DNA of 64,000 bases from Burkholderiaceae bacterium (GCA_035628395.1 DASPJX010000204.1:5747-69746), one strand, 5' to 3'; positions 1 through 14,563 are shown, counted from the stretch's first letter. The notes: generated from the sequence alone by a model not told the origin. A program made the numbers and translations.

Positions 1-1448
1 GGCGTCGCGGCGACCGCGACCTCGAGCACGCCGGGATGCCGGCGCAGCACCGACTCGACCTCGACCGCGGCGATGTTCTCGCCGCTGCGCCGGATCACGT
101 TCTTGCGCCGGTCGACGAAGTGCAGCGCCCCGGCCTCGCCGCGGCGCACGACGTCGCCGGTGCGGAACCAGCCGCCCGCCCAGGCCTGCGCGGTGGCCTC
201 GGCGTCCTTCAGGTACTCGCGGAAGAAGCCGCGGCGCGGCTCCGGGCCGGCGGCGCGCACCAGCAGCTCGCCGGGCGTGCCGTCGGGCACGTCGCGGTCC
301 GCCTCGTCGACGATCCGCAGCTCGAGCTCCGGGCCGGGCACGCCGAAGCAGCTCTGCCCGACGTGGCGCGGCTCGCGGTTGGCGATCACGACCGCGCCCG
401 CGCCGGTCTCGGTCATCGCCCAGGCCTCGAGCAGCGGAAACCCGAAGCGCGCCTCGAAGCTCGCGTGGTGGCGCCGGTCCACGCCCGCGCCGAAGCCGAA
501 CCGCACGCCGTGGTCGCGGTCGTCGGGCGACTCGGGCGCGCCGATCAGCATCGCCGGCATCACGCCGAGGTAGTGGACGATCGTCGCGCGCGACGCGCGC
601 ACCGCGCGCCACCAGCTCGACGGATGGAAGCGGTCCAGCGGCACGACGCAGCCGGCCGACAGCAGCATCGCCATCGTCGAGTACGCCATCGCGTTCATGT
701 GCGTCATCGGCAGCGGCGTGATCAGCCGCTCCTGCCCGAAGCGGATCGCGCAGAGCCCGCCGGCCCGCAGGTACCAGCGCCCGGCGATCAGGTAGTACGC
801 GTTGTCGAGCACGCAGCCCTTGGGCCGGCCGGTGGTGCCCGAGGTGTAGAGCAGCCCGCACTCCGAGTCGGGGCCGGGGTCGCCCGCGCGCGGCGCGGGC
901 CCGGGCGCCGGCGCGAGCGAGGCGAGCCCGCGCGGCGCGGCGCCGCCGGGGCCGGCGTGCGTCTCGTCGTCGAGGCTCGGCACGACGCACACCGTGCAGC
1001 CGGTGCGCGCGGCCGCCGCGCGCAGGTCGTCGACCCGCGCCGGCAGCGCGACCGCCACGCACAGCCCGCTGTGCTCGACGAGGTAGTCGAGCTCGGCGGC
1101 GCGCAGCTCGCCGTTGATCGGCACGACGGAGACGCCGAGCGCGTTCAGCGCGAGCCAGGTGAGGAAGAACGACGGCCGGTTCTCGAGCAGCAGCCCCGCG
1201 CGATGGCCGTGGCCGTAGCCGGCCGCCGCGAAGCGCGCCGCGATCTCGCGGACCGCGACGAGCGCGCGGCCGTAGTCGAGCTCGATCGGCGCGATGCCCG
1301 CGCGGTGCGCGACCTCGGGCAGGATCTGCAGGAACGGGCGTCGCGGATGCTCGGTCGCGATCCGCTCGAACGCGGCGAACACGCTCGCGTCGTCGTCGGG
1401 CACGGGGGGCGACGCGCGGCCGTCGCCGTCCGGGAGGAGCGGGCTCAT
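1..1448 (-). CDS. AMP-dependent aryl/acyl-CoA synthetase (3' end cut by the window edge)
   Basis: Absent from the ORF track because it is open at the edge. My translation of the minus strand from ATG at 1448 gives MSPLLPDGDG..., then LLYTSGTTGRPKG (AMP-binding signature), WAMTETG and GWFRTGD. Its ATG overlaps the stop of the upstream beta-subunit gene (ATGA at 1445-1448). Confidence 0.85.
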   Translation of the reverse strand, partial: MSPLLPDGDGRASPPVPDDDASVFAAFERIATEHPRRPFLQILPEVAHRAGIAPIELDYGRALVAVREIAARFAAAGYGHGHRAGLLLENRPSFFLTWLALNALGVSVVPINGELRAAELDYLVEHSGLCVAVALPARVDDLRAAAARTGCTVCVVPSLDDETHAGPGGAAPRGLASLAPAPGPAPRAGDPGPDSECGLLYTSGTTGRPKGCVLDNAYYLIAGRWYLRAGGLCAIRFGQERLITPLPMTHMNAMAYSTMAMLLSAGCVVPLDRFHPSSWWRAVRASRATIVHYLGVMPAMLIGAPESPDDRDHGVRFGFGAGVDRRHHASFEARFGFPLLEAWAMTETGAGAVVIANREPRHVGQSCFGVPGPELELRIVDEADRDVPDGTPGELLVRAAGPEPRRGFFREYLKDAEATAQAWAGGWFRTGDVVRRGEAGALHFVDRRKNVIRRSGENIAAVEVESVLRRHPGVLEVAVAAT

Positions 1449-1936
1449 GGGAAGAGCTGGATCGAGGGCAGCGCGGCGTCGCAGTTCAGCAGGTCCACCC
1501 GCTTCAGGCGGATCCGCGGCGCGCCGTCGACCGTCGCGATCGTGTGGCGCACGACCGCGGCGAGCACGATCTGCGCCTCGCCCTGCGTCTCGACGTAGAG
1601 CTCGTTCGTGCGCATCGTCCAGGTCCCGGCGGCCTCGTCGGCGGACTCGAGCTCCGGGCGCTGGAGCACGTGCAGGCAGCGCACCGGCGGATGCAGCGAG
1701 AACGAGCGCGGGTTGGAGAAGCGCTCGATCCGCAGCCGCAGCAGCAGCTTGTCCTCGTCCATCAGCGAGGTGTGGTTCTCGCGGTCGGGCTGCCCGGGCG
1801 CGAGCGGCACCCAGTAGACGCCGTCGTCCGCGTACAGCGCGTACCACTCCTCCCAGCGGCGCTCGTCGATCAGCCGCGCCTCGAGGTAGACGAGCTCGGC
1901 GAGGCGCTCGGCCGTCGTCGGTGCGGCGCCCGTCAT
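1445..1936 (-). CDS. Aromatic ring-hydroxylating (Rieske) dioxygenase, beta (small) subunit
   Basis: C-terminal 163 codons of track ORF 1445..3139, starting MTGAAPTTAERLAELVYLEARLIDERRWEEWYALY (NTF2-like beta-subunit pattern). ATGA overlaps with the alpha subunit (1933-1936) and the CoA ligase. Confidence 0.8.
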   Translation of the reverse strand: MTGAAPTTAERLAELVYLEARLIDERRWEEWYALYADDGVYWVPLAPGQPDRENHTSLMDEDKLLLRLRIERFSNPRSFSLHPPVRCLHVLQRPELESADEAAGTWTMRTNELYVETQGEAQIVLAAVVRHTIATVDGAPRIRLKRVDLLNCDAALPSIQLFP

Positions 1937-3282
1937 GCCGGCGTCCCCTCGGTCATGTAGCGCGCCCACGCGCGGAACTGGTTGCGCATCGACACCTCGC
2001 TCGTGCCCTTCGTCGTGCGGTCGGCGGCGCCGATCTCCGCGGGATCGAAGTCGCGGTGCAGGCTGACCCACGGGTTGCCCGAGGCGGCGAGCCCCTGCTG
2101 GATCGACCGGTAGCAGTGCAGGTCGTCGTGGCCGACGACCGACATCGGCGAGTTGATCAGCCGCGAGTACGTCATCGTCCGCTTCAGCAGCGACTCGGGC
2201 GCGCCGACCTGCCGGAAGGTCCACGACTCGATCAGCGTCCGGTCCGCGGCGAGCGGGCGCACGACGCGGATCGCCGAGATCGCGCCCTTGATCGTCAGGC
2301 TCGGGTAGTAGACGGTGTTGTGCCGCACCTCGCCGAGGATCGCGTGCGCGCGCTCCTCGCCGTACGCGGCGACCATCGCGCGCTCGTACTCGGGGATCTG
2401 CGAGTACTTCGAGTGGATCGAGCCGTGCACGCCGGTGTAGCCGTGCCCGTTGTCGAACACCCGCACGCCCATCGAGTCGAAGAAGTCGTAGCTCGACACG
2501 AAGGGCACGAACTGCTCGATCGCCATCGGCTTGGGCTCGTCGGCCGGCCGGCCGGACCACAGCCGCTTGGCGGTGCCGGCCGAGGACTCGTGCGCCACCA
2601 TCGGATGCATGGTGTCGTTCAGGTTCTCGACGAACATCTTCCAGTTGCAGTCGTGCAGGTAGCGCAGCACGCCGCCGGCCACCTCGAGCCGGCCTTCGGG
2701 CGAGCGCTCGACCATGTTGTCGATCGAGGTCAGCGACGCGCCGAAGTACTCGCGAAAGCCCGGCCCGTCGTCCGACAGCCGGCAGAACACGAAGCCCCGG
2801 TAGTTCTCGACGTGGCGCAGCGCGGCCATCCCCCGCGCGTTGGGCGAGCGCTCGAAGCCCGTGCCCTCGTAGCCCTGCTTCAGCGGTACCGCCCGGATCG
2901 CCCCGTCCAGGTCGTACGCCCACGCATGGTACGGACAGCGAAAGAACCGCCCGACGTGGCCCGACGCCTCGCTCACCAGCTTCGCGCCCTTGTGCGCGCA
3001 GCGGTTCTCCAGCACCCGCACCGCGCCGTCCTCGCCGCGCACCATCACCAGCGGCCGCCCGGCGATCTCCACCGCCGCGTAGTCGCCCGGCGCCGGCACC
3101 TGGCTGTCGTGCCCGACGTACACCCAGGTGCGCGACCACAGCCGCTCGCGCTCGAGCTCGTACACCTCGGCGTCGACGTACACGTCGCGGTGCACCGCGT
3201 CCTCGCGCACCAGCGCGCGCAGCGCACCCGGATCGTCGCGGTAGCGGCTCCGCGCGCGCGGAGCCCCGGTCGTCGCGTCCAT
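1933..3282 (-). CDS. Aromatic ring-hydroxylating (Rieske) dioxygenase, alpha (large) subunit
   Basis: Track ORF of 449 aa. Rieske 2Fe-2S motif CAHKG...CPYHAW and mononuclear-iron motif DTMHPMVAH. Confidence 0.9.
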   Translation of the reverse strand: MDATTGAPRARSRYRDDPGALRALVREDAVHRDVYVDAEVYELERERLWSRTWVYVGHDSQVPAPGDYAAVEIAGRPLVMVRGEDGAVRVLENRCAHKGAKLVSEASGHVGRFFRCPYHAWAYDLDGAIRAVPLKQGYEGTGFERSPNARGMAALRHVENYRGFVFCRLSDDGPGFREYFGASLTSIDNMVERSPEGRLEVAGGVLRYLHDCNWKMFVENLNDTMHPMVAHESSAGTAKRLWSGRPADEPKPMAIEQFVPFVSSYDFFDSMGVRVFDNGHGYTGVHGSIHSKYSQIPEYERAMVAAYGEERAHAILGEVRHNTVYYPSLTIKGAISAIRVVRPLAADRTLIESWTFRQVGAPESLLKRTMTYSRLINSPMSVVGHDDLHCYRSIQQGLAASGNPWVSLHRDFDPAEIGAADRTTKGTSEVSMRNQFRAWARYMTEGTPA

Positions 3283-3321: not shown

Positions 3322-5043
3322 TCAGGCGGCGTGCGCGGCGGGCGGCACGGCGCCGCCCCCCTCGAGCCGCGCGAGCGCCGCGCCGAGCGCGACCCCGCCC
3401 TCGTCGGCGAGCGCCGCCTCGCGCAGGCCGCGCAGGCCCGCCGCCGACAGCGCGCCCGGCGGCAGGCGGTCGACCGCCTGCATCAGCCGCTCGAAGTTCG
3501 CCCAGCCGCGCGCGTGCGTGTCCGAGTAGCCGCGCACCAGCGTCTGGCAGCGCGCGATCTCGAGCGCGAGCGCCGGATCGCGACCCGCGACCGCGACGAC
3601 GCGCGCGAGCCAGTCACCGATCCGCGCCGTCTCGACCTGGAAGCGCAGCGACGAGCGGCGGATCCGCCGCAGCGACGCGACCGCGTAGAGCGTCAGGAAG
3701 CCGCGCACCGAGCTCGTCCGCACGACCCGCCCGCCGCCGGCCAGGCGCGTCGCCCAGCCGCGCAGCCGCGGGCCGGCGAGCAGCCGCCGACCCAGCGCGG
3801 CGGGCAGCGTGTCGGCGATCTCCTCGACGCGCGGATGCAGGAACTCCCCGATCTCGAGCAGCTGGCCGTCGGCCAGCCGGACCTCGCCCGCGACCCGCTC
3901 GAAGCGGCTGCGCCGCGTCTTCAGGTCGGCCACGCGCACCGTGTCCTCGTACGACATCCACAGCGCGAGGTGCCGCGCGGTCTCGGCGAGCAGCGCGTGC
4001 GGCGGCTCGCCGGCGATCGCGCCGCCGCCCCGCGCGTCGAGCGCGCGCAGCGGCCCGAGGCGATCGAGGTAGTCGGCCGCGTGCGCCTCGTCCTGCCAGT
4101 CGGCCAGCCGCAGCACGCCCGCGCGCAGCACCTCGTGCGCCTCGGCCGGGAAGTCGGCGACGATCCGCGCCTCGTGCGCGCGCAGCCGCGGCCCGAGCAC
4201 CGTCGGCCGACGGGCCGGGGCGGCCGCGCCCGGTCCGCCGGGCAGCGCCGCGCTGCCCGAGGGGCCGTCGGCGACCGAGGTCGCGCCGGTCGAGACCGCG
4301 TCGCCGGGCGCCGGGAGCGGCGCCGCGGCCGCCTCGCGGGCGGCGTCGAAGCCGGCGGCGAACGCGGCGAGGCTCGCGTCGACGCCGACGCCGCCGCGCC
4401 GGACCGCGGCCTCGAAGGCCTCGCGCGGGAACGGCAGCGCGCCGGTGCCGGCGAGCGCGCCGAACAGCGAGGCGCTGATCACGCTGCGGGCGTCCTCGGC
4501 GAGCCGCGCGAAGTCGGCCGCGACGAACCGGCGCGCCGCGTCGCGGCCGGCCCCCAGCAGCGCCGACGAGTCGACGCGGCCGTCGGCCATCGCGGTCTTC
4601 TCGGTCATCGAATAGACGCGGTTGGTCGAGGCGATCAGCGTGGTGCGGTCGTCGCTGACGAGGCCGCGCTGGATCGCGCGCCCCGCCTCCATCAGCTCCG
4701 AGGCGATCACCACGTCGACCTCGCCGGGCGTCGGCATCAGCGCGAGCACCGGCTCGCGGCCGGCCGCGCGCACCGCCGCCTCGGGGAACAGCTCCACGTA
4801 GTAGATCGTCGCGCCGGTGCGCTGCGCGACGCCGGGCACCGAGGTGGCCTGCGCGACGAAGCCGTTCGACTCGCCGAGGTCGACCACCCAGTCGGCGAGC
4901 ACCCCGCCGCCCTCGCCGCCCATCGCGAGGATCGCGACGCAGATCGCGCGCGGACGCCCCGCGTCCACGACGCCGGCCGTCCCGGCCGTGGCCGCGGGCG
5001 CCGCGGCGTCGCCGCGCGGGCGGGACAGCTCGCGCGCGCTCAT
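3322..5043 (-). CDS. iorB: Indolepyruvate/aryl-2-oxoacid:ferredoxin oxidoreductase, beta subunit (IorB-like)
   Basis: C-terminal 573 codons of track ORF 3322..6711, starting MSARELS at ATG 5043, which overlaps the IorA stop (ATGA 5040-5043). N-terminal AILAMGGEGGGVLADW catalytic-type domain. The upstream part of the track ORF is R/A/G junk antisense to iorA. Confidence 0.8.
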   Translation of the reverse strand: MSARELSRPRGDAAAPAATAGTAGVVDAGRPRAICVAILAMGGEGGGVLADWVVDLGESNGFVAQATSVPGVAQRTGATIYYVELFPEAAVRAAGREPVLALMPTPGEVDVVIASELMEAGRAIQRGLVSDDRTTLIASTNRVYSMTEKTAMADGRVDSSALLGAGRDAARRFVAADFARLAEDARSVISASLFGALAGTGALPFPREAFEAAVRRGGVGVDASLAAFAAGFDAAREAAAAPLPAPGDAVSTGATSVADGPSGSAALPGGPGAAAPARRPTVLGPRLRAHEARIVADFPAEAHEVLRAGVLRLADWQDEAHAADYLDRLGPLRALDARGGGAIAGEPPHALLAETARHLALWMSYEDTVRVADLKTRRSRFERVAGEVRLADGQLLEIGEFLHPRVEEIADTLPAALGRRLLAGPRLRGWATRLAGGGRVVRTSSVRGFLTLYAVASLRRIRRSSLRFQVETARIGDWLARVVAVAGRDPALALEIARCQTLVRGYSDTHARGWANFERLMQAVDRLPPGALSAAGLRGLREAALADEGGVALGAALARLEGGGAVPPAAHAA

Positions 5044-7274
5044 GCCGCGAACCCCTCGAGCCGGCGCTCGATGCGGCGCTGCAGCCAGCCGACGATCCGG
5101 CGGCGCCAGCGGTCGCGACGGCGATCGCCCGCGCTCGGGTTGTGGACGATGCCGGCCCGGTAGAACGACGGGCACAGCACCGCGGCGTGCGACACCTCGC
5201 CGCACAGCCCGCAGCCGACGCAGGAGTCGACGACCGCGGCGATCGGCTCGGTGCGCAGCGGGTCGGGGTTGTCGCGCACCGTCAGCGACGGGCAGCCCGA
5301 CAGCCGGATGCACGAACGATCGCCGGTGCAGGTGTCCGGGTCGACGCCGAAGCGCTCGCGCACCACCCGCTCGCCCGAGGCGATCGCCGCGCGCTGCTTC
5401 GGCTTCTCGCGCCGCTGCCGGTTGAGCATGCACTCGCTCTGCGCGACGACGACCTTCGGGCCCTTCTCGGGCGTGGTCAGCGCCTCGCGCAGCACGTCGC
5501 GCATCCGGGACACCGAGTACGTGTTCGTCACGGTGCGCACCCATTCGACGCCGACGCCGCGGACCGCGCGCTCGATCGGGTTGTTCGTCGAGCGCAGCCC
5601 GTTCTCCGCCTTCGACGACATCACGTCCTGGCCGCCGGTCGCGGCCGAGTAGCCGTTGTCGATCACGAGCAGCACGTTGTCGGTCTTGTTGAACACCGCG
5701 TTGCCCACGCCGCTCGTCAGGCCGTTGTGCCAGAAGCCGCCGTCGCCCATCACGCTGATCGTGCGCTTCGCGGTCTCGTCGGTGTTGAGCGCGGCGGCGC
5801 CCGCCCAGCCCAGGCCGTAGCCCATCGTCGTCGCGCCGATCTCGAACGGCGGCAGGATCGAGAACAGGTTGCAGCCGATGTCGCAGCTGACGTGGTGCCG
5901 CCCCAGCTCGCGCTCGAGCAGCTTCATCGCGGCGAAGATCGGCCGCTCGGGGCAGCCGGTGCAGAACGACGGCGGACGCGCGTGCACGTGCGGCGCCACC
6001 GCGGCCGCCGGCTCGGGGACGCGGCGCGGCGGACGCGCGATGGCCGACGGATCGATCCGCGCGACGACCGGCGCGTCGGTCCTCACCGGCGCGGCGGCGG
6101 CGGCGGGCCGTGCCGCGCGCGGCAGCGGCCGGCCGGCGAGCAGCGCCGGCTCCGTCAGCTCGACGAAGCGCGCGACGCCCGCGGTCACCGCGCCGCCGGT
6201 GTACTCGCCGGCGGCCGGCAGCACGTCCTTGCCGTGGATCGCGGTCTGCAGCCCGGCGCGGCGCAGGATCGTGTTCAGCGCCTGCTCGATGTAGTCGGGC
6301 TGCCCCTCCTCGACGAGCAGCACCGCGCGCTTGTCGGCGCAGAAGGCCGCCACCTCCTCGTCGATCAGCGGATAGGTGACGTTGAGCACGTACAGCGGGA
6401 TGCGGCTGCGGCCGAACGCGTCGGCGAGGCCGAGCGTCTCGAGCGCGCGCACCACGCCGTTGTACATCCCGCCCTGCATCACGATGCCGAGCCCGGACAC
6501 GTCGCCGTCGAAGAACTCGTTCAGCCGGTGCTCGCGCACGAAGCGCACGGCCGCCGGCCAGCGCTTGGTGATCTTCTCCTGCTCGTGCTGGTAGCTCATC
6601 GGCGGCAGCACGATCCGGCCGGTGTCGCGGCGCGGGTTCTCGATCGCGTCCTTCAGCGAGTACGGCGCGCGGCGGTTCGCCTTGGTGCGGAAGCGGCCGT
6701 GCACGTGGCACGCGCGGATCCGCAGCTCGAGCATCACCGGCGTGTTCGAGGCCTCGGACAGCTCGAAGCCCTTCTCGACCATCTCGACGATCTTCGGCAG
6801 GTTCGGGCGCGGGTCGAGCAGCCAGACCTGCGACTTCATCGCGAACGCGTGCGAGCGCTCCTGCATGATCGAGGAGCCCTCGCCGTAGTCCTCGCCGACG
6901 ATCAGCATCGCGCCGCCGGTGACCCCGCCCGAGGCGAGGTTGGCGAGCGCGTCGGACGCGACGTTGGTGCCGACGGTCGACTTGAAGGTGACCGCGCCGC
7001 GCAGCGGCGTGTTCACCGAGGCGGCGAGCGTGGCCGCGGCCGTCGCCTCCGACGCGCTGTGCTCGAAGCGGATGCCGAGCTCCTGCAGGATGTCGTTCGC
7101 GTCGGTCAGCACGTCCATCAGGTGCGAGATCGGCGCGCCCTGGTAGCCGGCCACGTACGACACGCCCGACTGCAGCAGCGCCTTGGTGACCGCGAGGATG
7201 CCCTCGCCCCGGAACTCGTCGCCGTCGCCGAGCCGCAGCGACTGCACTTCCTTCTTGAACGACCTTTCCGCCAC
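5040..7274 (-). CDS. iorA: Indolepyruvate/aryl-2-oxoacid:ferredoxin oxidoreductase, alpha subunit (IorA-like, TPP and 4Fe-4S)
   Basis: Track ORF 5040..7340 (TTG start). Conserved N-terminus AERSFKKEVQSLRLGDGDEFRGEGILAVTKALLQSGVSYVAGYQGAP, TPP motif GDGGFWHNG, and Cys clusters CTGDRSCIRLSGCPS and CVGCGLCGEV. I prefer GTG at 7274, which has GGGAG 6 nt upstream. The TTG at 7340 sits inside the promoter palindrome. Confidence 0.8.
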   Translation of the reverse strand: MAERSFKKEVQSLRLGDGDEFRGEGILAVTKALLQSGVSYVAGYQGAPISHLMDVLTDANDILQELGIRFEHSASEATAAATLAASVNTPLRGAVTFKSTVGTNVASDALANLASGGVTGGAMLIVGEDYGEGSSIMQERSHAFAMKSQVWLLDPRPNLPKIVEMVEKGFELSEASNTPVMLELRIRACHVHGRFRTKANRRAPYSLKDAIENPRRDTGRIVLPPMSYQHEQEKITKRWPAAVRFVREHRLNEFFDGDVSGLGIVMQGGMYNGVVRALETLGLADAFGRSRIPLYVLNVTYPLIDEEVAAFCADKRAVLLVEEGQPDYIEQALNTILRRAGLQTAIHGKDVLPAAGEYTGGAVTAGVARFVELTEPALLAGRPLPRAARPAAAAAPVRTDAPVVARIDPSAIARPPRRVPEPAAAVAPHVHARPPSFCTGCPERPIFAAMKLLERELGRHHVSCDIGCNLFSILPPFEIGATTMGYGLGWAGAAALNTDETAKRTISVMGDGGFWHNGLTSGVGNAVFNKTDNVLLVIDNGYSAATGGQDVMSSKAENGLRSTNNPIERAVRGVGVEWVRTVTNTYSVSRMRDVLREALTTPEKGPKVVVAQSECMLNRQRREKPKQRAAIASGERVVRERFGVDPDTCTGDRSCIRLSGCPSLTVRDNPDPLRTEPIAAVVDSCVGCGLCGEVSHAAVLCPSFYRAGIVHNPSAGDRRRDRWRRRIVGWLQRRIERRLEGFAA

Positions 7275-7314
7275 CGTCCGCTCCCGGCTCCCGCGCCGCC
7301 TGCGCACGGGCGCG

Positions 7315-7341
7315 ATTGCATTAGATGAAAATTCATGCAAT
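7315..7341. promoter_or_regulatory. Perfect palindrome ATTGCAT-N13-ATGCAAT in the divergent iorA / thiolase-like promoter region; candidate operator (possibly for the MarR at 10622)
   Basis: Read directly from the sequence: ATTGCAT at 7315-7321 and ATGCAAT at 7335-7341, in the only AT-rich stretch of this region. It overlaps the predicted promoters TTGCAT-17-AATAGT (plus strand) and TTGACA-17-TCAAAT (minus strand, tgtcaa 7369-7374 and atttga 7346-7351). Confidence 0.35.
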
Positions 7342-7367: not shown

Positions 7368-8561
7368 GTGTCAAGCGTGCCCACCCCCCGAAACCGGATC
7401 GGCTACGACGAGGTCGCGATCGTCGCGCCGGTCACGGTGCCCTACGTGCGCTACTCGATCCGGGCGGCGCACTGGTTCGTCGCGCGGGCGCTGGCGCTGC
7501 TGCTCGAGCGCAGCGGGCTGTCCAAGGACGAGGTCGACGGCGCGTGCGTCTCGAGCTTCACGCTCGCGCCCGACAGCGCGATCGGCCTGATGCAGCACCT
7601 CGGGCTGTCGCCGCGCTGGCTCGACTGGCTGCCGATCGGCGGCGCGAGCGGCGTGATGGCGATGCGCCGCGCCGCGCGGGCGGTGCAGTCGGGCGACGCC
7701 GACGTCGTCGCCTGCGTCGCGGCCGACACCAACCACGTCGACTCGTTCCGGCTCACGCTGTCGAACTTCAGCCAGTTCGCCCGCGACGCGGTGTATCCGT
7801 ACGGCGCGGGCGGCCCGAACGCGAGCTTCGCGTTCCTGACCGACCACTACATGCGCACCTACGGCGCGACCCGCGAGGACTTCGGCAAGCTGTGCGTCGC
7901 GCAGCGCGAGAACGCGCTGCGCAACCCGCTCGCGCTGTTCAGGAAGCCGCTGACCCTGGCCGAGTACCTCGACGCGCGCCCGATCGCCGATCCGCTGCAC
8001 CTGTTCGACTGCGTGATGCCCTGCGCCGGCGCCGACGCGGTGCTCGTGATGCGGCGCGAGCGCGCGCGCGACCTCGGCCTGCCGTACGCGACGCTGCTCG
8101 GCACGATCGAGCGCCACAACGCGTTCCCCGACGATCCGGTGCAGTTCCGGGGCGGCTGGGAGATGGACCGCGACGACCTGTACGCGCAGGCGGGCGTCGG
8201 CCCGGCCGACGTCGACCTGTTCCAGCCCTACGACGACTACCCGGTGATCTCGATGATGCAGATCGAGGACCTGGGGTTCTGCGCGAAGGGCGAGGGGCCG
8301 GCGTTCGTGCGCGAGCACGGCTTCACCTGGCGCGACTCGTTCCCGCTCAACACCTCGGGCGGCCAGCTGTCGGCCGGCCAGGCGGGCTGCGCGGGCGGCT
8401 ACCTGGGGCTCGTCGAGGCGGTGCGCCAGCTGACCGGCGAGGCCGGCGAGCGGCAGGTCGCCGACGCCCGCATCGGGCTGGTCAGCGGCTTCGGGATGAT
8501 CAACTTCGACCGCGGCCTCGCCACCTGCGCCGCGCTGCTCGGACGCGGAGACGCCCGATGA
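7368..8561 (+). CDS. Thiolase-like (SCP-x/Ltp-type) protein lacking canonical thiolase catalytic residues; probable DUF35-dependent retro-aldolase/thiolase-fold enzyme
   Basis: Track ORF of 397 aa with a thiolase fold (NTSGGQLS..., ...DADVVACVAAD...). It has GGASG where thiolases carry CxSG and GQAGCAGG where they carry GHPxGATG. The stop overlaps the next gene's start (ATGA 8558-8561). The exact start (GTG 7368 or 7377) is uncertain. Confidence 0.8.
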   Translation: MSSVPTPRNRIGYDEVAIVAPVTVPYVRYSIRAAHWFVARALALLLERSGLSKDEVDGACVSSFTLAPDSAIGLMQHLGLSPRWLDWLPIGGASGVMAMRRAARAVQSGDADVVACVAADTNHVDSFRLTLSNFSQFARDAVYPYGAGGPNASFAFLTDHYMRTYGATREDFGKLCVAQRENALRNPLALFRKPLTLAEYLDARPIADPLHLFDCVMPCAGADAVLVMRRERARDLGLPYATLLGTIERHNAFPDDPVQFRGGWEMDRDDLYAQAGVGPADVDLFQPYDDYPVISMMQIEDLGFCAKGEGPAFVREHGFTWRDSFPLNTSGGQLSAGQAGCAGGYLGLVEAVRQLTGEAGERQVADARIGLVSGFGMINFDRGLATCAALLGRGDAR

Positions 8562-9802
8562 GCGCGCCGATGACGCGCCCGAAGCGCAAGAACCCGGTGC
8601 TCGCCACGCGCGCGCCGACGCTGCCGCCCGGCGGGCGCAGCCGCGTCGCGCTCGGGCTGACCGCCGCCGCGGCCGAGGGCCGCTTCGCGCTGCAGGCCTG
8701 CGCCGACTGCGGCGCGGTCCAGTACCCGCCGCGCGAGGCCTGCCGCGTCTGCCTGGGCGTGCGGCTGCCCTGGCGCACGCAGGACGGCGCGGGCACGCTG
8801 CTCGCGCAGACCCGGCTGCACCACAGCAACGACCTGTTCTTCCGCGAGCGGCTGCCCTGGCGGCTCGGCATGGTGAAGCTCGCGGTCGGCCCGACGGTCG
8901 TGGCCCACCTGCACGGCGACGTCGGCGCGGCCGGCGAGCGGGTGCGCGTGCGCGCGATGCTCGACCGGGCCGGCCAGGCCGTGCTCGTCGCGCTGCCCTC
9001 CGAGGACACCCCGAACATGAGCGACGACCCGATGCTGCGCGAGATGAGCTGCGACCCGAAGTTCCGCAAGGTGCTGGTCACCGACGCGAAGACCGCGACC
9101 GGACAGGCGGTGGTGAAGGCGCTGGTGGCCGCGGGCGCCGACGTCGTCTGGGCGGGCCACGCCGAGCCCTGGAAGAAGCTGCCGGGCTTCGACGCGCTGG
9201 TCGCGCTGCCGCAGGTGACGCCGGTGCCGCTCGACCCGACCGACTCGCGCTCGGTGGCGGAGCTCGCCGGCGAGATCGGCGGCCGGGTCGACATCGTCGT
9301 CAACACCGCCGAGCACCACCGCGCGCAGGGCATCGGCGGGCGCGTCGCGGTCGAGACCGCGCGCAGCGAGATGGACGTCAACTACTTCGGGCTGCTGCGG
9401 CTCGCGCAGGCCTTCGGGCCGGCGCTGCGCGCGCGCGCGGCCGACGGGCCGACCGGCGCCTGCGCGTGGGTCAACCTGCTGTCGATCTTCGCGCTCGCCA
9501 ACTTCCCCGCGCACGGCACGTTCTCCGCGTCGAAGGCCGCCGCGCTGTCGCTCGCGCAGTGCCTGCGCGCCGAGATGCGCCCGGCGGGCGTGCGCGTGGT
9601 CAACGTGTTCCCGGGCCCGATCGACGACGAGTGGAACCAGCTGCTGCCGCCGCCCAAGCTGCCGCCGGCGGCGCTCGCGAAGGCGGTCGTCGGCGCGCTG
9701 AAGGACGGCACCGAGGACGTCTATCCCGGCGACGTCGCGCAGGAGTGGCTCGAGCGCTGGCGCGACAACCCGAAGGCCCTGGAACGCGAGATCGGCGGCT
9801 GA
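8558..9802 (+). CDS. Fusion protein: N-terminal DUF35 (Zn-ribbon + OB-fold) domain and C-terminal degenerate short-chain dehydrogenase/reductase-like domain
   Basis: In-frame part of track ORF 7544..9802, starting at ATG 8558. Zn-ribbon CADCGAVQYPPREACRVC followed by an OB-fold segment. The SDR-like half is KVLVTDAKTATGQAVVKAL ... HGTFSASKAAALSLAQCLRAEMRPAGVRVVNVFPGPI, with Phe replacing the catalytic Tyr. Confidence 0.75.
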   Translation: MSAPMTRPKRKNPVLATRAPTLPPGGRSRVALGLTAAAAEGRFALQACADCGAVQYPPREACRVCLGVRLPWRTQDGAGTLLAQTRLHHSNDLFFRERLPWRLGMVKLAVGPTVVAHLHGDVGAAGERVRVRAMLDRAGQAVLVALPSEDTPNMSDDPMLREMSCDPKFRKVLVTDAKTATGQAVVKALVAAGADVVWAGHAEPWKKLPGFDALVALPQVTPVPLDPTDSRSVAELAGEIGGRVDIVVNTAEHHRAQGIGGRVAVETARSEMDVNYFGLLRLAQAFGPALRARAADGPTGACAWVNLLSIFALANFPAHGTFSASKAAALSLAQCLRAEMRPAGVRVVNVFPGPIDDEWNQLLPPPKLPPAALAKAVVGALKDGTEDVYPGDVAQEWLERWRDNPKALEREIGG

Positions 9803-9821
9803 GCCGCCACGGAGACCGACC

Positions 9822-10619
9822 ATGGACAGGCTGCCCCCTTCCGAGACGCTCGGCGCGCTGGTCGCCGACCTGCTCGCCGGACGCATCCGCGTCGTCGACC
9901 TGACGCAGACCCTCGCCCCCGAGTTCCCGCAGATCGTGCTGCCGCCCGAGATGGGCCAGTGCCTGCCGTTCCGGATCGAGGAGATCTCGCGCTACGACGA
10001 CCGCGGTCCCGGCTGGTACTGGAACAACTTCTCCTGCGGCGAGCACACCGGCACGCACTTCGACGCGCCGATCCACTGGGTCTCGGGCCGCGACCTGCCG
10101 AACAACTCGGTCGACACGCTGCCCGTCGAGCGCACGATCGGCCCGGCCTGCGTGATCGACTGCTCGGCGCAGTCGGCCGCCGACCCCGACTTCCTGCTGA
10201 CCCGGGACTTCGTGCTCGACTGGGAGTCGCGTCACGGCCGGATCCCGCCGCGCGCGTGGGTGCTGATGCGCACCGACTGGAGCAAGCGCACCGATCCGGT
10301 GGACTACCAGAACTACGACGAGACCGGCCAGCACACGCCGGGCCCCGACGCCGAGGTCGCGCGCTTTTTCGTCGAGGAGCGCGACGTCGTGGGCTTCGGC
10401 ACCGAGGCGATCGGCACCGACGCCGGCCAGGGGGTCCACCAGCGTCCGCCCTACCCGTGCCACTACTACATGCACGGCGCGGGGCGCTACGGGCTGCAGT
10501 GCCTGACCAACCTCGACCTGCTGCCGCCCACCGGCGCCGTCGTGATCGCCCCTCCGCTGAAGATCCGCCAGGGCAGCGGCAGTCCGCTGCGCGTGATCGC
10601 GCTGGTGCCGGGAGGCTGA
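9822..10619 (+). CDS. Cyclase-family metal-dependent amidohydrolase (kynurenine formamidase / isatin hydrolase family)
   Basis: Track ORF of 265 aa with the metal-binding signature CGEHTGTHFDAPIHW (HxGTHxDxPxH). Confidence 0.85.
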   Translation: MDRLPPSETLGALVADLLAGRIRVVDLTQTLAPEFPQIVLPPEMGQCLPFRIEEISRYDDRGPGWYWNNFSCGEHTGTHFDAPIHWVSGRDLPNNSVDTLPVERTIGPACVIDCSAQSAADPDFLLTRDFVLDWESRHGRIPPRAWVLMRTDWSKRTDPVDYQNYDETGQHTPGPDAEVARFFVEERDVVGFGTEAIGTDAGQGVHQRPPYPCHYYMHGAGRYGLQCLTNLDLLPPTGAVVIAPPLKIRQGSGSPLRVIALVPGG

Positions 10620-10621
10620 GC

Positions 10622-11098
10622 GTGGCGCGACGCGCGGACGCGCTCGCCCCCGGCGCGGCGGCGAACGACGAACCGCTCGAGGGCTTCATCGCCGGCTACC
10701 TGCCGTACCTGCTCGCCCGCGCGAGCCACCTGATCTCGGGCCAGTTCCACGCGCACCTGGCCGCGGAGAAGGTGCCGGTGATGCAGTGGCGCGTGCTCGC
10801 CGCGCTGTGGGACGCGCCGAAGTCGGCGCGCGAGGTCGCCGACATCATCCTGCAGAAGCAGCCCACGGTCTCCAAGCTGCTCGACCGCATGGAGCGTCAG
10901 GGCCTCGTGCGGCGCGAGACCGACGCCGAGGACCGCCGGCGGATCGTCGTCAGCCTGTCGCCGCGCGGACGCGCGGTGGCCGGGCCGCTGATCGAGGCCG
11001 CCCGCGAGCACGAGCGCGCGGTGCTCGAGCCCTTCGGCTCGGGCAACGCGCGCGCGCTGATCGCGGCGCTGCAGCGGCTGATCGACGGCAACGCCTGA
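10622..11098 (+). CDS. MarR-family transcriptional regulator
   Basis: In-frame part of track ORF 9959..11098. GTG 10622 has GGAGG 6 nt upstream and lies 2 nt after the cyclase stop. Winged-HTH pattern VMQWRVLAALWDAPKSAREVADIILQKQPTVSKLLDRMERQGLVRRETDAEDRRRIVVSLSPRG. Confidence 0.85.
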   Translation: MARRADALAPGAAANDEPLEGFIAGYLPYLLARASHLISGQFHAHLAAEKVPVMQWRVLAALWDAPKSAREVADIILQKQPTVSKLLDRMERQGLVRRETDAEDRRRIVVSLSPRGRAVAGPLIEAAREHERAVLEPFGSGNARALIAALQRLIDGNA

Positions 11099-11234
11099 GC
11101 CCGGTCGCCCGCGCCGGGCGGCCGGGGGGAGCCGCCCGAGTCGCCGGCGCCGCCCGACCCGCTGCGGGCGGCCGTGCCCGCGGCGGCCCGGCTCGGCCGC
11201 GCGGCGCGCCGCCGCGGTCGGGCGGACCTGATCT

Positions 11235-12104
11235 ATGATCCCTCCCCAGCCCTTCGCCCACCGTGACCGGAACGCCGTGACCGACCTGCCCGTGCGCCGC
11301 CTCGCGATCGACCTCGACACGCCCTTCCCGGTGCGCTGGGCGGGCGGCGACGCGTTCCGCTCGGCGCTCTTCAACGCGCTGTCGATGAGCTTTCCGGTCG
11401 GCGAGCAGTTCTTCATCGACTCGGTCCGCGCCGGCATCGCGGCGCTGCCGCCCGAGCGGCGCGAGGCCTTCGCCGCCGAGGCGAAGGGCTTCATCGGCCA
11501 GGAGGCGACGCACCGGCACGTCCACGCGCGCTTCAACGCGATCCTCGCCGACCAGGGCCAGGTCAACACCGTCGAGGCCCGGGCCGGCCGCCGGATGGCC
11601 GCCGCCGCGAGCCTGGACGTGCGCAACCGGGTGGCGGCCACGGCGGCCACCGAGCACCTGACGGCGGTGTTCGCCGAGTGGACGCTGCGCCATCCCGAGG
11701 CGTTCGACGGCGTCGAGCCCCGGCTGCGCCGGATGTGGGAATGGCACGCCGCCGAGGAGTCCGAGCACCGCTCGACCGCGTTCGACCTCTACGGCGCGCT
11801 CGGCGGCGACCACGCGTGGCGGGTGCGGACCTTCCGCTACGTGACGACGACCTTCGTGATCGACATCGGGCGCCAGACGCTGCGCAACCTGTGGGACGAC
11901 GGCGCGCTGCTGCGACCCTCGACCTGGACGAGCGCCGCGCGATTCCTGTTCTCGCGCGACGGGTTCGTGCGCGGCAACGTCGCGGCGTGGCGCGCGTACC
12001 TCGCGCCGGACTTCCATCCGTCGAGGCACGGCGGCGCGCTCGGCGCGCGCTGGCTCGACGAGCATCCGGACGCGTACTCGGTGGTCGGGCGCCCGGCGGC
12101 CTGA
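11235..12104 (+). CDS. Predicted metal-dependent hydrolase (PF10118-like)
   Basis: Track ORF of 289 aa with FNALSMSFPVGEQFFIDSVR ... GQEATHRHVH ... AAEESEHRS, which resembles the predicted metal-hydrolase family. The true start is possibly GTG 11277, because the ATG at 11235 lies inside a TATGAT -10-like box. Confidence 0.6.
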   Translation: MIPPQPFAHRDRNAVTDLPVRRLAIDLDTPFPVRWAGGDAFRSALFNALSMSFPVGEQFFIDSVRAGIAALPPERREAFAAEAKGFIGQEATHRHVHARFNAILADQGQVNTVEARAGRRMAAAASLDVRNRVAATAATEHLTAVFAEWTLRHPEAFDGVEPRLRRMWEWHAAEESEHRSTAFDLYGALGGDHAWRVRTFRYVTTTFVIDIGRQTLRNLWDDGALLRPSTWTSAARFLFSRDGFVRGNVAAWRAYLAPDFHPSRHGGALGARWLDEHPDAYSVVGRPAA

Positions 12105-12182
12105 GGGCGCGTCCGCCGTCCCGCGCTCCGGACGGAGGCGGGATCGCCTCCATCGGGCCGCGCGCCGCGGCGGCCGGTGCGC

Positions 12183-13001
12183 TCAGCCGCCCGGCGCGCG
12201 CACCGGCTCGAGCGCCGCGAGCACCGCGTCGTGGATCGTGCCGCCGGTCGCGACGATCGAGTCGGCGCCGACCGGGTCCCCGCCCGTCCAGTCGGTGATC
12301 CGTCCGCCCGCGCCCTCGACGACCGGGATCAGCGCCATCAGGTCCCACGGCGAGAGGATCGGGTCGAGCATCGCGTCGGCGCCGCCGGTGGCCAGCAGCG
12401 CGTAGCCCTGGCAGTCGCCCCAGGTGCGGTAGAGCCTCGCGCGGCGCGCGAGCGCCTCGAACGCGGCGCCGTCCCGGTGGCGCGCGACGGCGTGATGGTC
12501 GGTGGTCAGCAGCGTCGCGTCCTCGATCCGCGCGCAGGGCCGCACCCGGACCGCGCGGCCGCCGGCGAGCCGGGTCTCGTCGCCGGTGCCGAGGAGCGCG
12601 TGCCCGGTCGCCGGGCTCGCGATCACGCCGATCGTCGGGCGACCGTCGCGCTGCAGCGCGATCAGCGTGCCGAACATCGGGCAGTTCGCGATGAACGAGC
12701 GCGTGCCGTCGATCGGATCGAGCACCCAGCGGTAGCGCGCGCCCGGGCGCGTCTCGCCGTACTCCTCGCCGAGGATGCCGTGGTCGGGGTAGCGCCGCTC
12801 GATCAGCGCGCGCATCACCTCCTCGGCGCGGCGGTCGGCCACCGTCACCGGCGTCGCGTCGGCCTTGTCGAGCACGCGCACGTCGGCGAGCCACCACGGG
12901 CGGATGACCGCGGCCGCGACCGCGGCGAGCTCGAGCGCGAAGGGCACCAGCTCGGCGCGCTCGGCCGCGTCGGGCACGGCGGTGTGGCGCGGAGCGTCCA
13001 T
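12183..13001 (-). CDS. Inositol monophosphatase family protein (IMPase / histidinol-phosphatase-like)
   Basis: Track ORF of 272 aa with motifs ILGEEYG, WVLDPIDGT and WDLMALIPVVEGAGG. Confidence 0.85.
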   Translation of the reverse strand: MDAPRHTAVPDAAERAELVPFALELAAVAAAVIRPWWLADVRVLDKADATPVTVADRRAEEVMRALIERRYPDHGILGEEYGETRPGARYRWVLDPIDGTRSFIANCPMFGTLIALQRDGRPTIGVIASPATGHALLGTGDETRLAGGRAVRVRPCARIEDATLLTTDHHAVARHRDGAAFEALARRARLYRTWGDCQGYALLATGGADAMLDPILSPWDLMALIPVVEGAGGRITDWTGGDPVGADSIVATGGTIHDAVLAALEPVRAPGG

Positions 13002-13012
13002 CGGCGCGCGGA

Positions 13013-14008
13013 TCAGACCGACTCGCGCATCGCCCAGCGCATGTCGGGGTAGCGCTCGCCCGCCACCGCCTCGTGCATGCGCAGCGCCTCGATCCGCGCG
13101 AGCGTGCGCGCCGACAGCGCGACGTCGACCGCGTCGAGGTTCTCGTCCAGTCGCGCCCGCCGCGTGGTGCCGGGGATCGGCACGACGTCGCGGCCCTGCG
13201 CGAGCACCCAGGCGAGCGCGAGCTGCGCGGGCGTGCAGCCCGCCTCCCGCGCGATCGCCGCGAAGCCGGCGAGCAGCTCGCGGTTGCGCGCGGCGTTGTC
13301 CTGCGAGAAGCGCGGCTGGCTTCGCCGGAAGTCGTCGGCCGCGAGCGCCGACGGGTCGGTCGCGGCGCCGGTCAGGAAGCCGCGCCCGAGCGGGCTGTAC
13401 GGCACGAAGCCGATGCCGAGCTCGCGCAGCACCGGGAACAGCGGCTCGACGTCGCGGCTCCAGAGCGAGTACTCGGTCTGCACCGCGGCGATCGGATGGA
13501 CCGCGTGCGCGCGCCGCACGGTGGCCGGCCCCACCTCGGACAGCCCGAGCCAGCGCACCTTGCCCGCGCGCACCAGGTCGGCCATCGCGCCGACCGTGTC
13601 CTCGATCGGCACGACGCCGTCGATCCGGTGGACGTAGAACAGGTCGATGCGATCGACGCCGAGCCGCTCGAGCGAGGCCTCGCAGGCCTCGCGCACGTAG
13701 TCGGGCGCGCCCGAGATGCCGCGGAACGACGGATCGTCGCGCCGGCGCAGGATGCCGAACTTCGTCGCGAGCACGACGCGCTCGCGCCGTCCGGCGATCG
13801 CGCGCCCGACGAGCCGCTCGTTGTCGCCGAAGCCGTAGATGTCGGCGGTGTCGAGCATCGTCGCGCCGCGCTCGATCGCGCGGTGGATCGTGCGGATCGA
13901 CTCGTCGGGGTCGGCGGGGCCGTAGAACTCGCTCATGCCCATGCAGCCGAGCCCGAGGGCGCCGACCGCCGGGCCGTCGCGGCCGAGCGTGCGAAGGGGG
14001 ATGTCCAT
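13013..14008 (-). CDS. Aldo/keto reductase
   Basis: Track ORF of 331 aa with [32 protein letters not shown] and the typical AKR C-terminal IPGT... Confidence 0.9.
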
Positions 14009-14051
14009 GCCCGATGATGCCGCAGGTCGCGCGTCCGCGCCCGCGCGCCGC

Positions 14052-14513
14052 TCAGCGCAGCAGCTCGGGCGACACCACCGCCTTCACCAGCACCTGCCCG
14101 CCGCCGCGCGCGCGCCAGCCGAGCCACCAGAGGCCGGCCTTGCGGATCGGCCAGACCCCGTCGCGGCCGGCCACCAGCAGCGCGGCGGCCCGTCCGATCC
14201 ACGGGTTGTGGCCGACGACGACGAGCGTGCCCTCGCGCCCCTCGGGCCAGCCGGTCTCGGCGATCGCCTCGTCGGCGTCCGCGCCGGGCGCGAGCGCGCC
14301 GCTCACGCCGTAGGGCAGCCCGAGCGCGTCGGCCGTCCGGCGCGCGCGCCGCGCCGGGCTGCACAGCACCGTCGTCGCCGCGCCCGCGGGCAGCCGCTCG
14401 CGCAGCCAGGCCCCCACCCGCGCCGCGTCCGCCTCGCCGCGCGGCGTCAGCGCGCGCGCGTCGTCGGGCGTGCCGTCCTCGGCCTGCGCGTGCCGCCACA
14501 GGATCAGGTCCAT
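14052..14513 (-). CDS. Histidine phosphatase family protein (SixA-like phosphohistidine phosphatase)
   Basis: Last 153 codons of track ORF 14052..15545, starting [14 protein letters not shown] (RHA/RHG motif), then LTPRGEADA and VVVGHNPW. The start ATG is at 14511-14513. Confidence 0.8.
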
Positions 14514-14563
14514 GTCGGGCTCCTCCGTGCGCGACGCGGCGCAACCCGCGTGCCCGTCGACCC

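Follow-up and report, generated by a model that had tools for sequence, protein, structure and literature searches.

An IadH orthologue that joins DUF35 to a degenerate SDR fold in a Burkholderiaceae iad locus, and its proposed part in a retro-aldolase with IadG

The DNA analysed here (the window) is a stretch of 64,000 nucleotides from a metagenome-assembled genome (MAG) of a Burkholderiaceae bacterium (GCA_035628395.1, DASPJX010000204.1:5747-69746). The open reading frame (ORF) at 8558-9802 on the plus strand is the IadH orthologue of a Variovorax-type iad (indole-3-acetic acid degradation) locus. Its product is a fusion of an N-terminal DUF35, composed of a zinc ribbon and an OB fold, with a C-terminal short-chain dehydrogenase/reductase (SDR) domain whose motifs are degenerate. 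By analogy with characterised enzymes, we consider it probable, with reservations set out below, that the thiolase-fold protein IadG and the DUF35 of IadH together form an Ltp2/Sal-like retro-aldolase giving isatin and acetyl-coenzyme A (acetyl-CoA). The SDR domain would most likely serve as a cofactor-less structural or ligand-holding module.

The iadH ORF is open throughout, with no internal stop, and its product is 414 amino acids in length. Three Pfam domains (zf-ChsH2, OB_ChsH2_C, and adh_short) are found in it, each above its curated cut-off, and the DUF35-SDR fusion claimed in a preliminary description of this sequence is therefore real. Over residues 1-412 of 414, IadH shares 72-88% identity with its counterparts at the iadH position of 80 genome loci, many of them from Variovorax. 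These loci were fetched from among at least 493 stretches encoding relatives, with one genome taken per species. Identity to Variovorax is approximately 73% for IadH and 69% for IadG. The gene is assigned to iadH because the window genes match those of the V. paradoxus locus (L056), whose order is the published one, and the solved structures agree. The gene is flanked by iadG on the 5' side and iadI on the 3' side, and iadA, iadB, iadD, iadE, iadF, iadJ, and a MarR gene are also present. The AlphaFold2 (AF2) model of IadH has a pLDDT of 93.4 and a pTM of 0.92. The MAG contains a single copy of iadH.

The zinc ribbon of the DUF35 (residues 36-67) matches zf-ChsH2 with 42.5 bits, against a cut-off of 23.2. 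It has the sequence CADCGAVQYPPREACRVC, in which the cysteines are arranged as C48-x2-C51-x10-C62-x2-C65, the canonical C4 spacing. All four zinc cysteines are kept in 292 of 292 distinct DUF35-SDR fusions. The OB fold (residues 72-132) matches OB_ChsH2_C with 39.1 bits, against a cut-off of 27.1, and the AF2 model places beta strands at residues 72-147 with a pLDDT above 90. The solved relatives nearest to this DUF35 are ChsH2-DUF35 (6ok1_B, the best match, E 1.8e-5), an archaeal DUF35 (6esq_E), and Shy-DUF35 (9myr_B).

The partner protein, IadG, matches Thiolase_C_1 with 122 bits. The thiolase cysteine is absent, and a glycine occupies the nucleophile position within PIGGASG (residues 89-95). 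IadG also carries the motifs YDDY (residues 288-291) and GGQLSAGQ. Its best solved matches are 9myr_A (CtSal, 185 bits), 4u4e (160 bits), and 6ok1_A (Ltp2, 149 bits), all of which are without a nucleophilic cysteine. PIGGASG aligns with DLGGASS of CtSal and YGGGAAC of Ltp2, Y288 aligns with Tyr302 of CtSal (YDCY) and Tyr294 of Ltp2 (YDHF), and GGQLSAGQ aligns with GGQLSFGQ of CtSal. All 79 IadG sequences have GG where the nucleophile would be. YDDY and GGQLSxGQ are invariant across the aligned orthologues, one sequence being gapped at YDDY.

CtSal is recognised by a glycine at the nucleophile position, the motif YDCY (Tyr302, Cys304), and Gln347 and Gln352. The catalytic tyrosine lies in YDCY (Sal) or YDHF (Ltp2), and the acid is Cys304 in Sal or Tyr344 in Ltp2 (PMC12329534). 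Neither of these acids is found in IadG, where D290 stands at the third position of the motif and the position of Ltp2 Tyr344 is a glutamine, as in Sal. Because the base tyrosine and both Sal glutamines are kept, and an aspartate replaces the Sal cysteine or Ltp2 histidine, IadG is, judged on these residues, a distinct third variant that lies outside the Sal and Ltp2 clades in the strict sense.

The iadG and iadH genes overlap by four nucleotides, with the ATG of iadH at 8558-8560 and the TGA of iadG at 8559-8561 (ORF 7368-8561). The coupling by ATGA to a protein lacking the thiolase cysteine, which had been described previously, can thus be read directly in the sequence. iadG lies immediately 5' of iadH in 78 of the 80 loci, and the same 4-nucleotide overlap, estimated in 41 of the 78 orthologous loci, is the commonest spacing. 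From the ATGA coupling and the adjacency, and by analogy with Ltp2 and Sal, we infer that the DUF35 of IadH is in a physical complex with its thiolase-fold partner.

Gene deletions made by others bear on the reaction. In V. paradoxus CL014, deletion of iadF, iadG, iadH, or iadI strongly cuts the formation of anthranilate, and each of the four deletions builds up C10H9NO4, which is dioxindole-3-acetic acid (10.1101/2025.10.25.684584). The gene 3' of iadH, iadI, encodes a protein whose match to isatin hydrolase A (5nna) reaches 382 bits, compared with 25 bits for kynurenine formamidase (4cob). It is called a kynurenine formamidase or a broad amidase in the literature; its sequence indicates that it should be called an isatin hydrolase.

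The following scheme is proposed. Dioxindole-3-acetic acid would be the product of IadCDE and IadJ. IadF, a CoA ligase, would convert it to the CoA thioester, a beta-hydroxyacyl-CoA with a tertiary alcohol. The tertiary C3 hydroxyl cannot be oxidised to a 3-keto thioester, and thiolysis is therefore impossible. IadG would bind the N-terminal DUF35 of IadH, as Ltp2 does with ChsH2-DUF35 and Sal with Shy-DUF35, and the complex would perform the retro-aldol cleavage of dioxindole-3-acetyl-CoA to isatin and acetyl-CoA. The tyrosine of YDDY would act as the base on the C3 hydroxyl, and the second aspartate would be the likely acid for the enolate. IadI would then open isatin to isatinate, which would proceed to anthranilate. 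The C-terminal SDR domain of IadH would have kept its fold and lost its dinucleotide-binding and catalytic motifs. The retro-aldol cleavage of a beta-hydroxyacyl-CoA is suggested by the chemistry of the substrate, the knock-outs, and the isatin hydrolase downstream. Ltp2 and Sal depend on their DUF35 partners; were IadG to depend likewise on the DUF35 of IadH, either deletion would block the same step, and the reported phenotypes agree.

The SDR domain (residues 171-359) matches adh_short with 72.8 bits and has a Rossmann-type SDR fold. Where TGxxxGxG is expected, IadH reads TDAKTATG (residues 175-182, nucleotides 9080-9103), the first glycine being replaced by aspartate and the second by alanine. 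In place of NNAG it reads NTAE (residues 249-252, nucleotides 9302-9313); among 81 close orthologues this position reads NNAE in 71 and NTAE in nine. The third motif is FSASK (residues 322-326), in which the F322 codon is TTC at nucleotides 9521-9523. F322 aligns with the catalytic tyrosine of 3m1a and 3ucx in HMMER alignments to solved SDRs. The Ser-Tyr-Lys triad is thus incomplete, with S309 and K326 kept and the tyrosine replaced. All three departures are as the preliminary description had given them. In addition, the basic VRK that follows beta-2 in the NADP-bound structure 5u4s reads HAE in IadH. Loss of NAD(P)(H) binding is predicted from these motifs.

FSASK is present in 73 of the 81 close orthologues, including every Variovorax. 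Among 34 diverse members, no tyrosine, histidine, serine, or lysine is invariant in the SDR domain. Compared with 5u4s in Foldseek, the AF2 model reaches a TM-score of 0.92-0.93 when normalised by target length. The SDR domain is 76% identical to orthologues and the DUF35 71%. A crude omega (Nei-Gojobori dN/dS) is 0.36 for the SDR domain and 0.50 for the DUF35; these values are distorted by extreme bias at third codon positions (GC3), which lowers dS, and are valid for comparing the domains and not as absolute omega. The SDR domain is no less conserved than the DUF35, which is in keeping with a non-catalytic role that has been retained. By comparison among the fusions, the degeneracy of the motifs is the conserved state of a large clade and not a private mutation. 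From these patterns, it is most likely that the SDR domain of IadH works without a cofactor, catalyses nothing, and has been retained for a structural or ligand-holding function. The earlier suggestion that the fold is kept as a scaffold is supported by the conservation of the domain and the intact AF2 fold.

The fusion is widespread. A search of 5.8 billion proteins gave at least 120 matches, and all of those listed share the four-Pfam architecture at 74-100% identity. The database names among the listed matches include "SDR family NAD(P)-dependent oxidoreductase" and "dehydrogenase/uncharacterized OB-fold protein". Among 50%-identity representatives, an exhaustive HMMER search found 249 clusters with E below 1e-30, and many of these are full length, at identities down to 37%. 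With at least 493 genome stretches encoding an IadH relative, the fusion is not the unusual arrangement it was first taken for. Among the carriers are Variovorax paradoxus, V. boronicumulans, Piscinibacter sakaiensis 201-F6, Rubrivivax, Pseudacidovorax, and Rhodoferax. When the order to which the window belongs was sampled evenly, nine of 301 genomes, from several families, carried a relative, a distribution typical of accessory catabolic genes.

The 292 distinct full-length DUF35-SDR fusions can be sorted into two sharply separated classes, with 242 degenerate and 50 canonical members. The degenerate class has a degenerate Gly motif and NNAG, and the first glycine is an aspartate in 235 of the 242. 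Over all 292 fusions the tyrosine is replaced by phenylalanine in 204, and elsewhere the tyrosine and lysine positions vary.

Canonical fusions (for example P0278, P0279, and P0310) lie directly 3' of a gene for a Cys-less YDDY thiolase-fold protein. Three such modules are located at 7826-11833 of locus L090, 6826-10840 of L092, and 5237-10236 of L094. The two genes overlap by four nucleotides in L090 and L092 and by one nucleotide in L094. In L090 and L092 the module is accompanied by enoyl-CoA hydratase and TauD genes and a divergent DLH/SnoaL gene, and in L094 by genes for a CoA ligase and a zinc-dependent alcohol dehydrogenase (Zn-ADH). The thiolase-fold partners of the canonical fusions are 50-55% identical to IadG and have the same Cys-less YDDY-type site. 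Judging from this arrangement, a YDDY thiolase fold plus a DUF35-SDR is a wider two-gene module, and the iad lineage appears to have kept the two genes and lost SDR catalysis. The canonical modules look like an uncharacterised general module for side-chain cleavage.

Several observations weigh against a retro-aldolase with a non-catalytic SDR domain. The complex and the aldolase activity are argued by analogy. The second catalytic residue of IadG is an aspartate, unlike either characterised aldolase, which has cysteine or else histidine with Tyr344; in CtSal, replacement of Cys304 by alanine, serine, or histidine leaves activity undetectable (PMC12329534). In IadH, S309 and K326 are retained, and the tyrosine is kept in eight of the 81 close orthologues, all of them outside Variovorax (for example Piscinibacter sakaiensis). 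The 50 canonical fusions, which form a sister clade, have the canonical Gly motif (GGG), and nearly all of them also have NNAG, the tyrosine, and the lysine. The closest solved SDR, 5u4s, binds NADP though its tyrosine is likewise absent. Strains with iadCDEFGH and without iadI, and the iadI deletion strain, accumulate C8H7NO2, which is isatin plus two hydrogens, and the wording "reductive removal" used for this step would fit a working reductase (10.1101/2025.10.25.684584). Finally, no iadC-type reductase was found near the locus in this MAG; the genome's best match, on another contig, has 34% identity. Because of this, the pathway as read from the sequence may be incomplete in this organism.

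The main rival takes up several of these points. The SDR domain would still be an enzyme, namely an isatin/dioxindole oxidoreductase of an unconventional kind that uses NAD(P)H and is attached to the aldolase, and IadFGH would carry out a reductive removal of the side chain to give dioxindole (C8H7NO2). We regard this as unlikely. The accumulation of C8H7NO2 and not isatin in the two kinds of strain lacking iadI (10.1101/2025.10.25.684584), the detection of dioxindole in V. paradoxus (PMC9613470), and the retained S309 and K326 speak for it. So do the NADP-binding of 5u4s, the purifying selection on the SDR domain, and the canonical, presumably active, fusions within the same two-gene module. 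The state of the motifs speaks against it: the first glycine is an aspartate in nearly the whole degenerate class, NNAG ends in glutamate, and the basic residues after beta-2 are lost. The tyrosine is replaced by phenylalanine in the 204 fusions that include all Variovorax, where the gene is essential, and both the tyrosine and the lysine vary freely over the degenerate clade. The next enzyme, a close relative of isatin hydrolase, requires isatin and not dioxindole. Unrelated carbonyl reductases in the cell reduce isatin readily, and dioxindole could therefore be a shunt product; it may have arisen by unspecific reduction of isatin.

Alternatively, the SDR fold could be a ligand sensor or regulatory module that binds oxindole, isatin, or a CoA nucleotide and gates the aldolase, or that docks IadI or IadF. 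This reading, which we consider improbable, is consistent with the strong purifying selection. The near-invariant aspartate at the first glycine position (235 of 242) suggests a new function over decay, and the modelled pTM of 0.92 would imply a fixed arrangement of DUF35 and SDR domains. Purified IadF to IadJ and IadC showed no binding to indole-3-acetic acid (IAA) in isothermal titration calorimetry (PMC10374108); IAA is not the expected ligand, however.

A beta-oxidation-like removal of the side chain, with IadH as an alcohol dehydrogenase of the 3-hydroxyacyl-CoA type and IadG as a ketothiolase, was rejected and is effectively excluded. It agrees with the automated annotations, which are "SDR family oxidoreductase" and "acetyl-CoA acetyltransferase/thiolase", and with the names ketothiolase (IadG) and alcohol dehydrogenase (IadH) used in two papers (10.1101/2025.10.25.684584, PMC12852158), in the first of which the functions were taken from annotation. 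The hydroxyl at C3 of dioxindole-3-acetic acid is tertiary, however, and no ketone is possible. The acyl-accepting cysteine of IadG is a glycine in all 79 sequences, CtSal with the same Cys-to-Gly substitution is incapable of thiolysis (PMC12329534), and the SDR motifs of IadH are degenerate.

An artefactual fusion, in which a frameshift or a misassembly within a fragmented MAG of 405 contigs had joined two genes, is hardly conceivable and effectively excluded, since the same single ORF is present in the complete genomes of Variovorax paradoxus, Variovorax sp. KK3, and Piscinibacter sakaiensis 201-F6, in 292 distinct sequences, and in 80 of 80 fetched loci, and AF2 models one compact protein.

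A bolder extension of the retro-aldolase reading is offered tentatively, and we would sooner doubt than defend it as a whole. IadG/IadH would represent a third catalytic class (Tyr/Asp, YDDY) of DUF35-dependent thiolase-fold retro-aldolases, and the first to act on a non-steroid substrate, dioxindole-3-acetyl-CoA. The pseudo-SDR would be obligatory and cofactor-free, derived from an active DUF35-SDR ancestor, and would shape the active site or pass the reactive isatin to isatin hydrolase. The wider module, including the canonical SDR versions beside enoyl-CoA hydratase/TauD or CoA ligase/Zn-ADH genes, would then be a means of removing side chains that is general and has gone unrecognised.

The IadG/IadH pair is not undescribed, as had been supposed, but is the named pair of the iad locus studied in V. 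paradoxus and V. boronicumulans. The V. paradoxus locus has orthologous IadG and IadH, the same DUF35-SDR fusion with FSASK, and the same neighbours iadA-B-D-E-F-I-J-R. Both genes have been named and deleted in V. paradoxus and their products purified (PMC9613470, PMC10374108, 10.1101/2025.10.25.684584), isatin and isatinate were detected there along with dioxindole (PMC9613470), and iadH is induced 3.35-fold by IAA in V. boronicumulans (PMC12852158). The searchable papers on this locus, which present IadH as an SDR or alcohol dehydrogenase and IadG as a ketothiolase, do not mention DUF35, dead motifs, or an aldolase. The terms "DUF35" and "aldol" are absent from the main text of 10.1101/2025.10.25.684584, and no paper was found in the searchable literature that links iad with an aldolase or retro-aldol step, or that names the DUF35 or the dead SDR motifs of IadH. 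Against the literature searched, the DUF35 domain of IadH, its dead SDR motifs, and the aldolase mechanism seem new. An iad cluster in Pseudomonas sp. LY1 was set aside, as the same letters are used there for an iac-like locus (PMC8383072). A preprint on archaeal fatty acid synthase describes DUF35 and SDR proteins, but no DUF35-SDR fusion was found in it.

The closest characterised systems are ChsH2(DUF35)-Ltp2 of Thermomonospora curvata (6ok1) and Shy(DUF35)-Sal of Comamonas testosteroni (9myr) (PMC12329534, PMC11321319). They have in common with IadG a Cys-less thiolase fold and a catalytic tyrosine in YDxx, and in both, as in IadGH, the DUF35 partner is fused to another enzyme-like domain. 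Their substrate is a beta-hydroxyacyl-CoA and their reaction is a retro-aldol cleavage, and the same is proposed for IadGH. The product of Ltp2, a 17-ketosteroid, is like isatin a ketone formed from a tertiary carbinol. The systems differ in that the DUF35 of IadH is N-terminal and joined to an SDR fold that looks catalytically dead, whereas the DUF35 of ChsH2 and Shy is C-terminal to a MaoC hydratase. The motif is YDDY in IadG, YDHF in Ltp2, and YDCY in Sal, and the proposed substrate is an oxindole and not a steroid.

Three further systems offer looser comparisons. In the BbsAB/BbsCD system of anaerobic toluene degradation, the DUF35 subunit BbsA partners a thiolase-fold enzyme, as here, and BbsC is an inactive SDR pseudo-subunit of the same pathway. 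BbsB (7pxp, 110 bits to IadG) is a true thiolase with its cysteine, however, and BbsA and BbsC are separate proteins, unlike the IadH fusion. BbsC pairs with an active paralogue, BbsD, and no SDR paralogue adjoins iadH, so the analogy with BbsC is loose. In ibuprofen degradation, the small partner IpfE is a DUF35 protein. IpfE is stand-alone and has no SDR domain, the substrate and product differ from those of iad, and the two systems are likened by description and not by sequence. What they share is a CoA ligase, a Rieske oxygenase, and a thiolase-like protein (IpfD) with a small partner that strip an oxygenated aromatic ring of its acyl-CoA side chain (PMC9195938). Lastly, 5u4s, an SDR of the PRK08264 family from Burkholderia cenocepacia solved as an NADP complex, is 34-36% identical to the SDR domain of IadH. 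Both have a C-terminal G-x-E-D-x-Y-x-G region and lack the catalytic tyrosine, 5u4s reading LSASK. Unlike IadH, 5u4s is stand-alone with no DUF35 and keeps TGADRGLG, NNAG, and the basic VRK. Its stand-alone subfamily may also be catalytically unconventional.

The features of the locus are collected in Table 1.

Table 1. Features of iadH and of the iad locus, with positions in the window except for iadJ.
Feature	Position	Strand	Basis
iadH orthologue, 414 amino acids, DUF35 (zinc ribbon plus OB fold) fused to degenerate-motif SDR fold	8558..9802	+	Translation, Pfam, orthology
Zinc ribbon of DUF35, residues 36-67, ligands C48, C51, C62, C65	8663..8758	+	Pfam zf-ChsH2
OB fold of DUF35, residues 72-132	8771..8953	+	Pfam OB_ChsH2_C
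SDR (Rossmann) domain, residues 171-359	9068..9634	+	Pfam adh_short
iadG orthologue, SCP2/Ltp2/Sal-like thiolase-fold protein	7368..8561	+	Pfam, solved-structure matches
ATGA stop/start overlap of iadG and iadH	8558..8561	+	Read in sequence
iadI orthologue, isatin hydrolase (cyclase family)	9822..10619	+	Pfam Cyclase
iadR-like MarR regulator, start codon unfixed	10640..11098	+	Pfam MarR_2; best solved match 7kfo, 102 bits
Perfect inverted repeat ATTGCAT-N13-ATGCAAT in the iadA/iadG divergent intergenic region	7315..7341	.	Read in sequence
iadA, IorA-like subunit (thiamine pyrophosphate and 4Fe-4S) of 2-oxoacid:ferredoxin oxidoreductase	5040..7340	-	Pfam, synteny; name from PMC9613470, PMC12852158
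iadB, IorB-like subunit (POR and DUF6537)	3322..5052	-	Pfam, synteny
iadD, Rieske oxygenase alpha subunit	1933..3282	-	Pfam; 688 bits to 9o71_A, 677 bits to 7yls_B
iadE, Rieske oxygenase beta subunit	1445..1951	-	Pfam Ring_hydroxyl_B, 68.9 bits
iadF, AMP-forming acyl-CoA ligase, extends past window start	1..1445	-	Pfam AMP-binding
iadJ orthologue (SDR), beyond iadF and outside the window	L089:4727-5446	-	64% identical to V. paradoxus iadJ

The genes of L056 and the other loci were called from ORFs and Pfam. L056 has the order IorA, IorB, FAD/2Fe-2S reductase, Rieske alpha, Rieske beta, AMP-ligase, thiolase-like, DUF35-SDR, cyclase, SDR, and two periplasmic binding proteins, which is the published order iadA-B-C-D-E-F-G-H-I-J-K2-K3 (PMC9613470, PMC10374108, PMC12852158). 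In tblastn searches of the 80 loci with the window neighbours, the thiolase-fold gene was found in 78, the cyclase in 76, Rieske alpha in 63, and IorB in 52. Variovorax has a single operon from iadA to iadK, whereas the locus of this MAG is divided into two arms that diverge, with iadJ-F-E-D-B-A read from the minus strand and iadG-H-I-R from the plus strand. No iadK binding-protein genes adjoin the MAG locus. The SDR encoded by iadJ has canonical motifs. We take 9o71 and 7yls to be structures of IadDE, given the very high similarity and the dates of the iad papers, and 7kfo, a MarR-family regulator, to be the auxin-binding MarR of V. paradoxus (PMC9613470).

The inverted repeat lies in the sole AT-rich stretch between iadA and iadG and is, from its sequence and position, a plausible candidate operator for the MarR protein (IadR). 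In V. paradoxus, the MarR_73 site is located between iadR and iadA (PMC9613470). iadA and iadB (3322-7340) encode a 2-oxoacid:ferredoxin oxidoreductase of the IorAB type, and isatinate (2-aminophenylglyoxylate) is a 2-oxoacid. Oxidative decarboxylation of isatinate to 2-aminobenzoyl-CoA is a possible role for IadAB; as iadC to iadK2 are enough for anthranilate formation (10.1101/2025.10.25.684584), this role is not established.

The region 3' of the MarR gene contains a PF10118 metal-dependent hydrolase (11235-12104, Pfam) and, from translations only, an inositol-monophosphatase-like gene (12183-13001), an aldo/keto reductase (13013-14008), and a BenE-like benzoate transporter (14564-15757). 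Homologues of the hydrolase, the aldo/keto reductase, and the transporter adjoin the locus only in the closest MAGs (L010 and L011). The genes from 11235 to 15757 are probably outside iad.

The iad locus lets Variovorax and its relatives clear auxin from the rhizosphere, which keeps root growth normal, and other root bacteria are now being engineered to carry it (10.1101/2025.10.25.684584). Removal of the side chain is the least resolved step of the pathway, and the names ketothiolase and alcohol dehydrogenase are not supported by the sequences. A DUF35-assembled retro-aldolase, if the reading is true, would explain why either deletion gives the same block and would predict isatin and acetyl-CoA as products. 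Engineers would then have to keep iadG and iadH together and stoichiometrically balanced, and the Ltp2/Sal aldolase paradigm would reach beyond steroids with a new catalytic motif. The 242 distinct sequences of the degenerate type also provide a well-populated example of a pseudoenzyme domain under selection.

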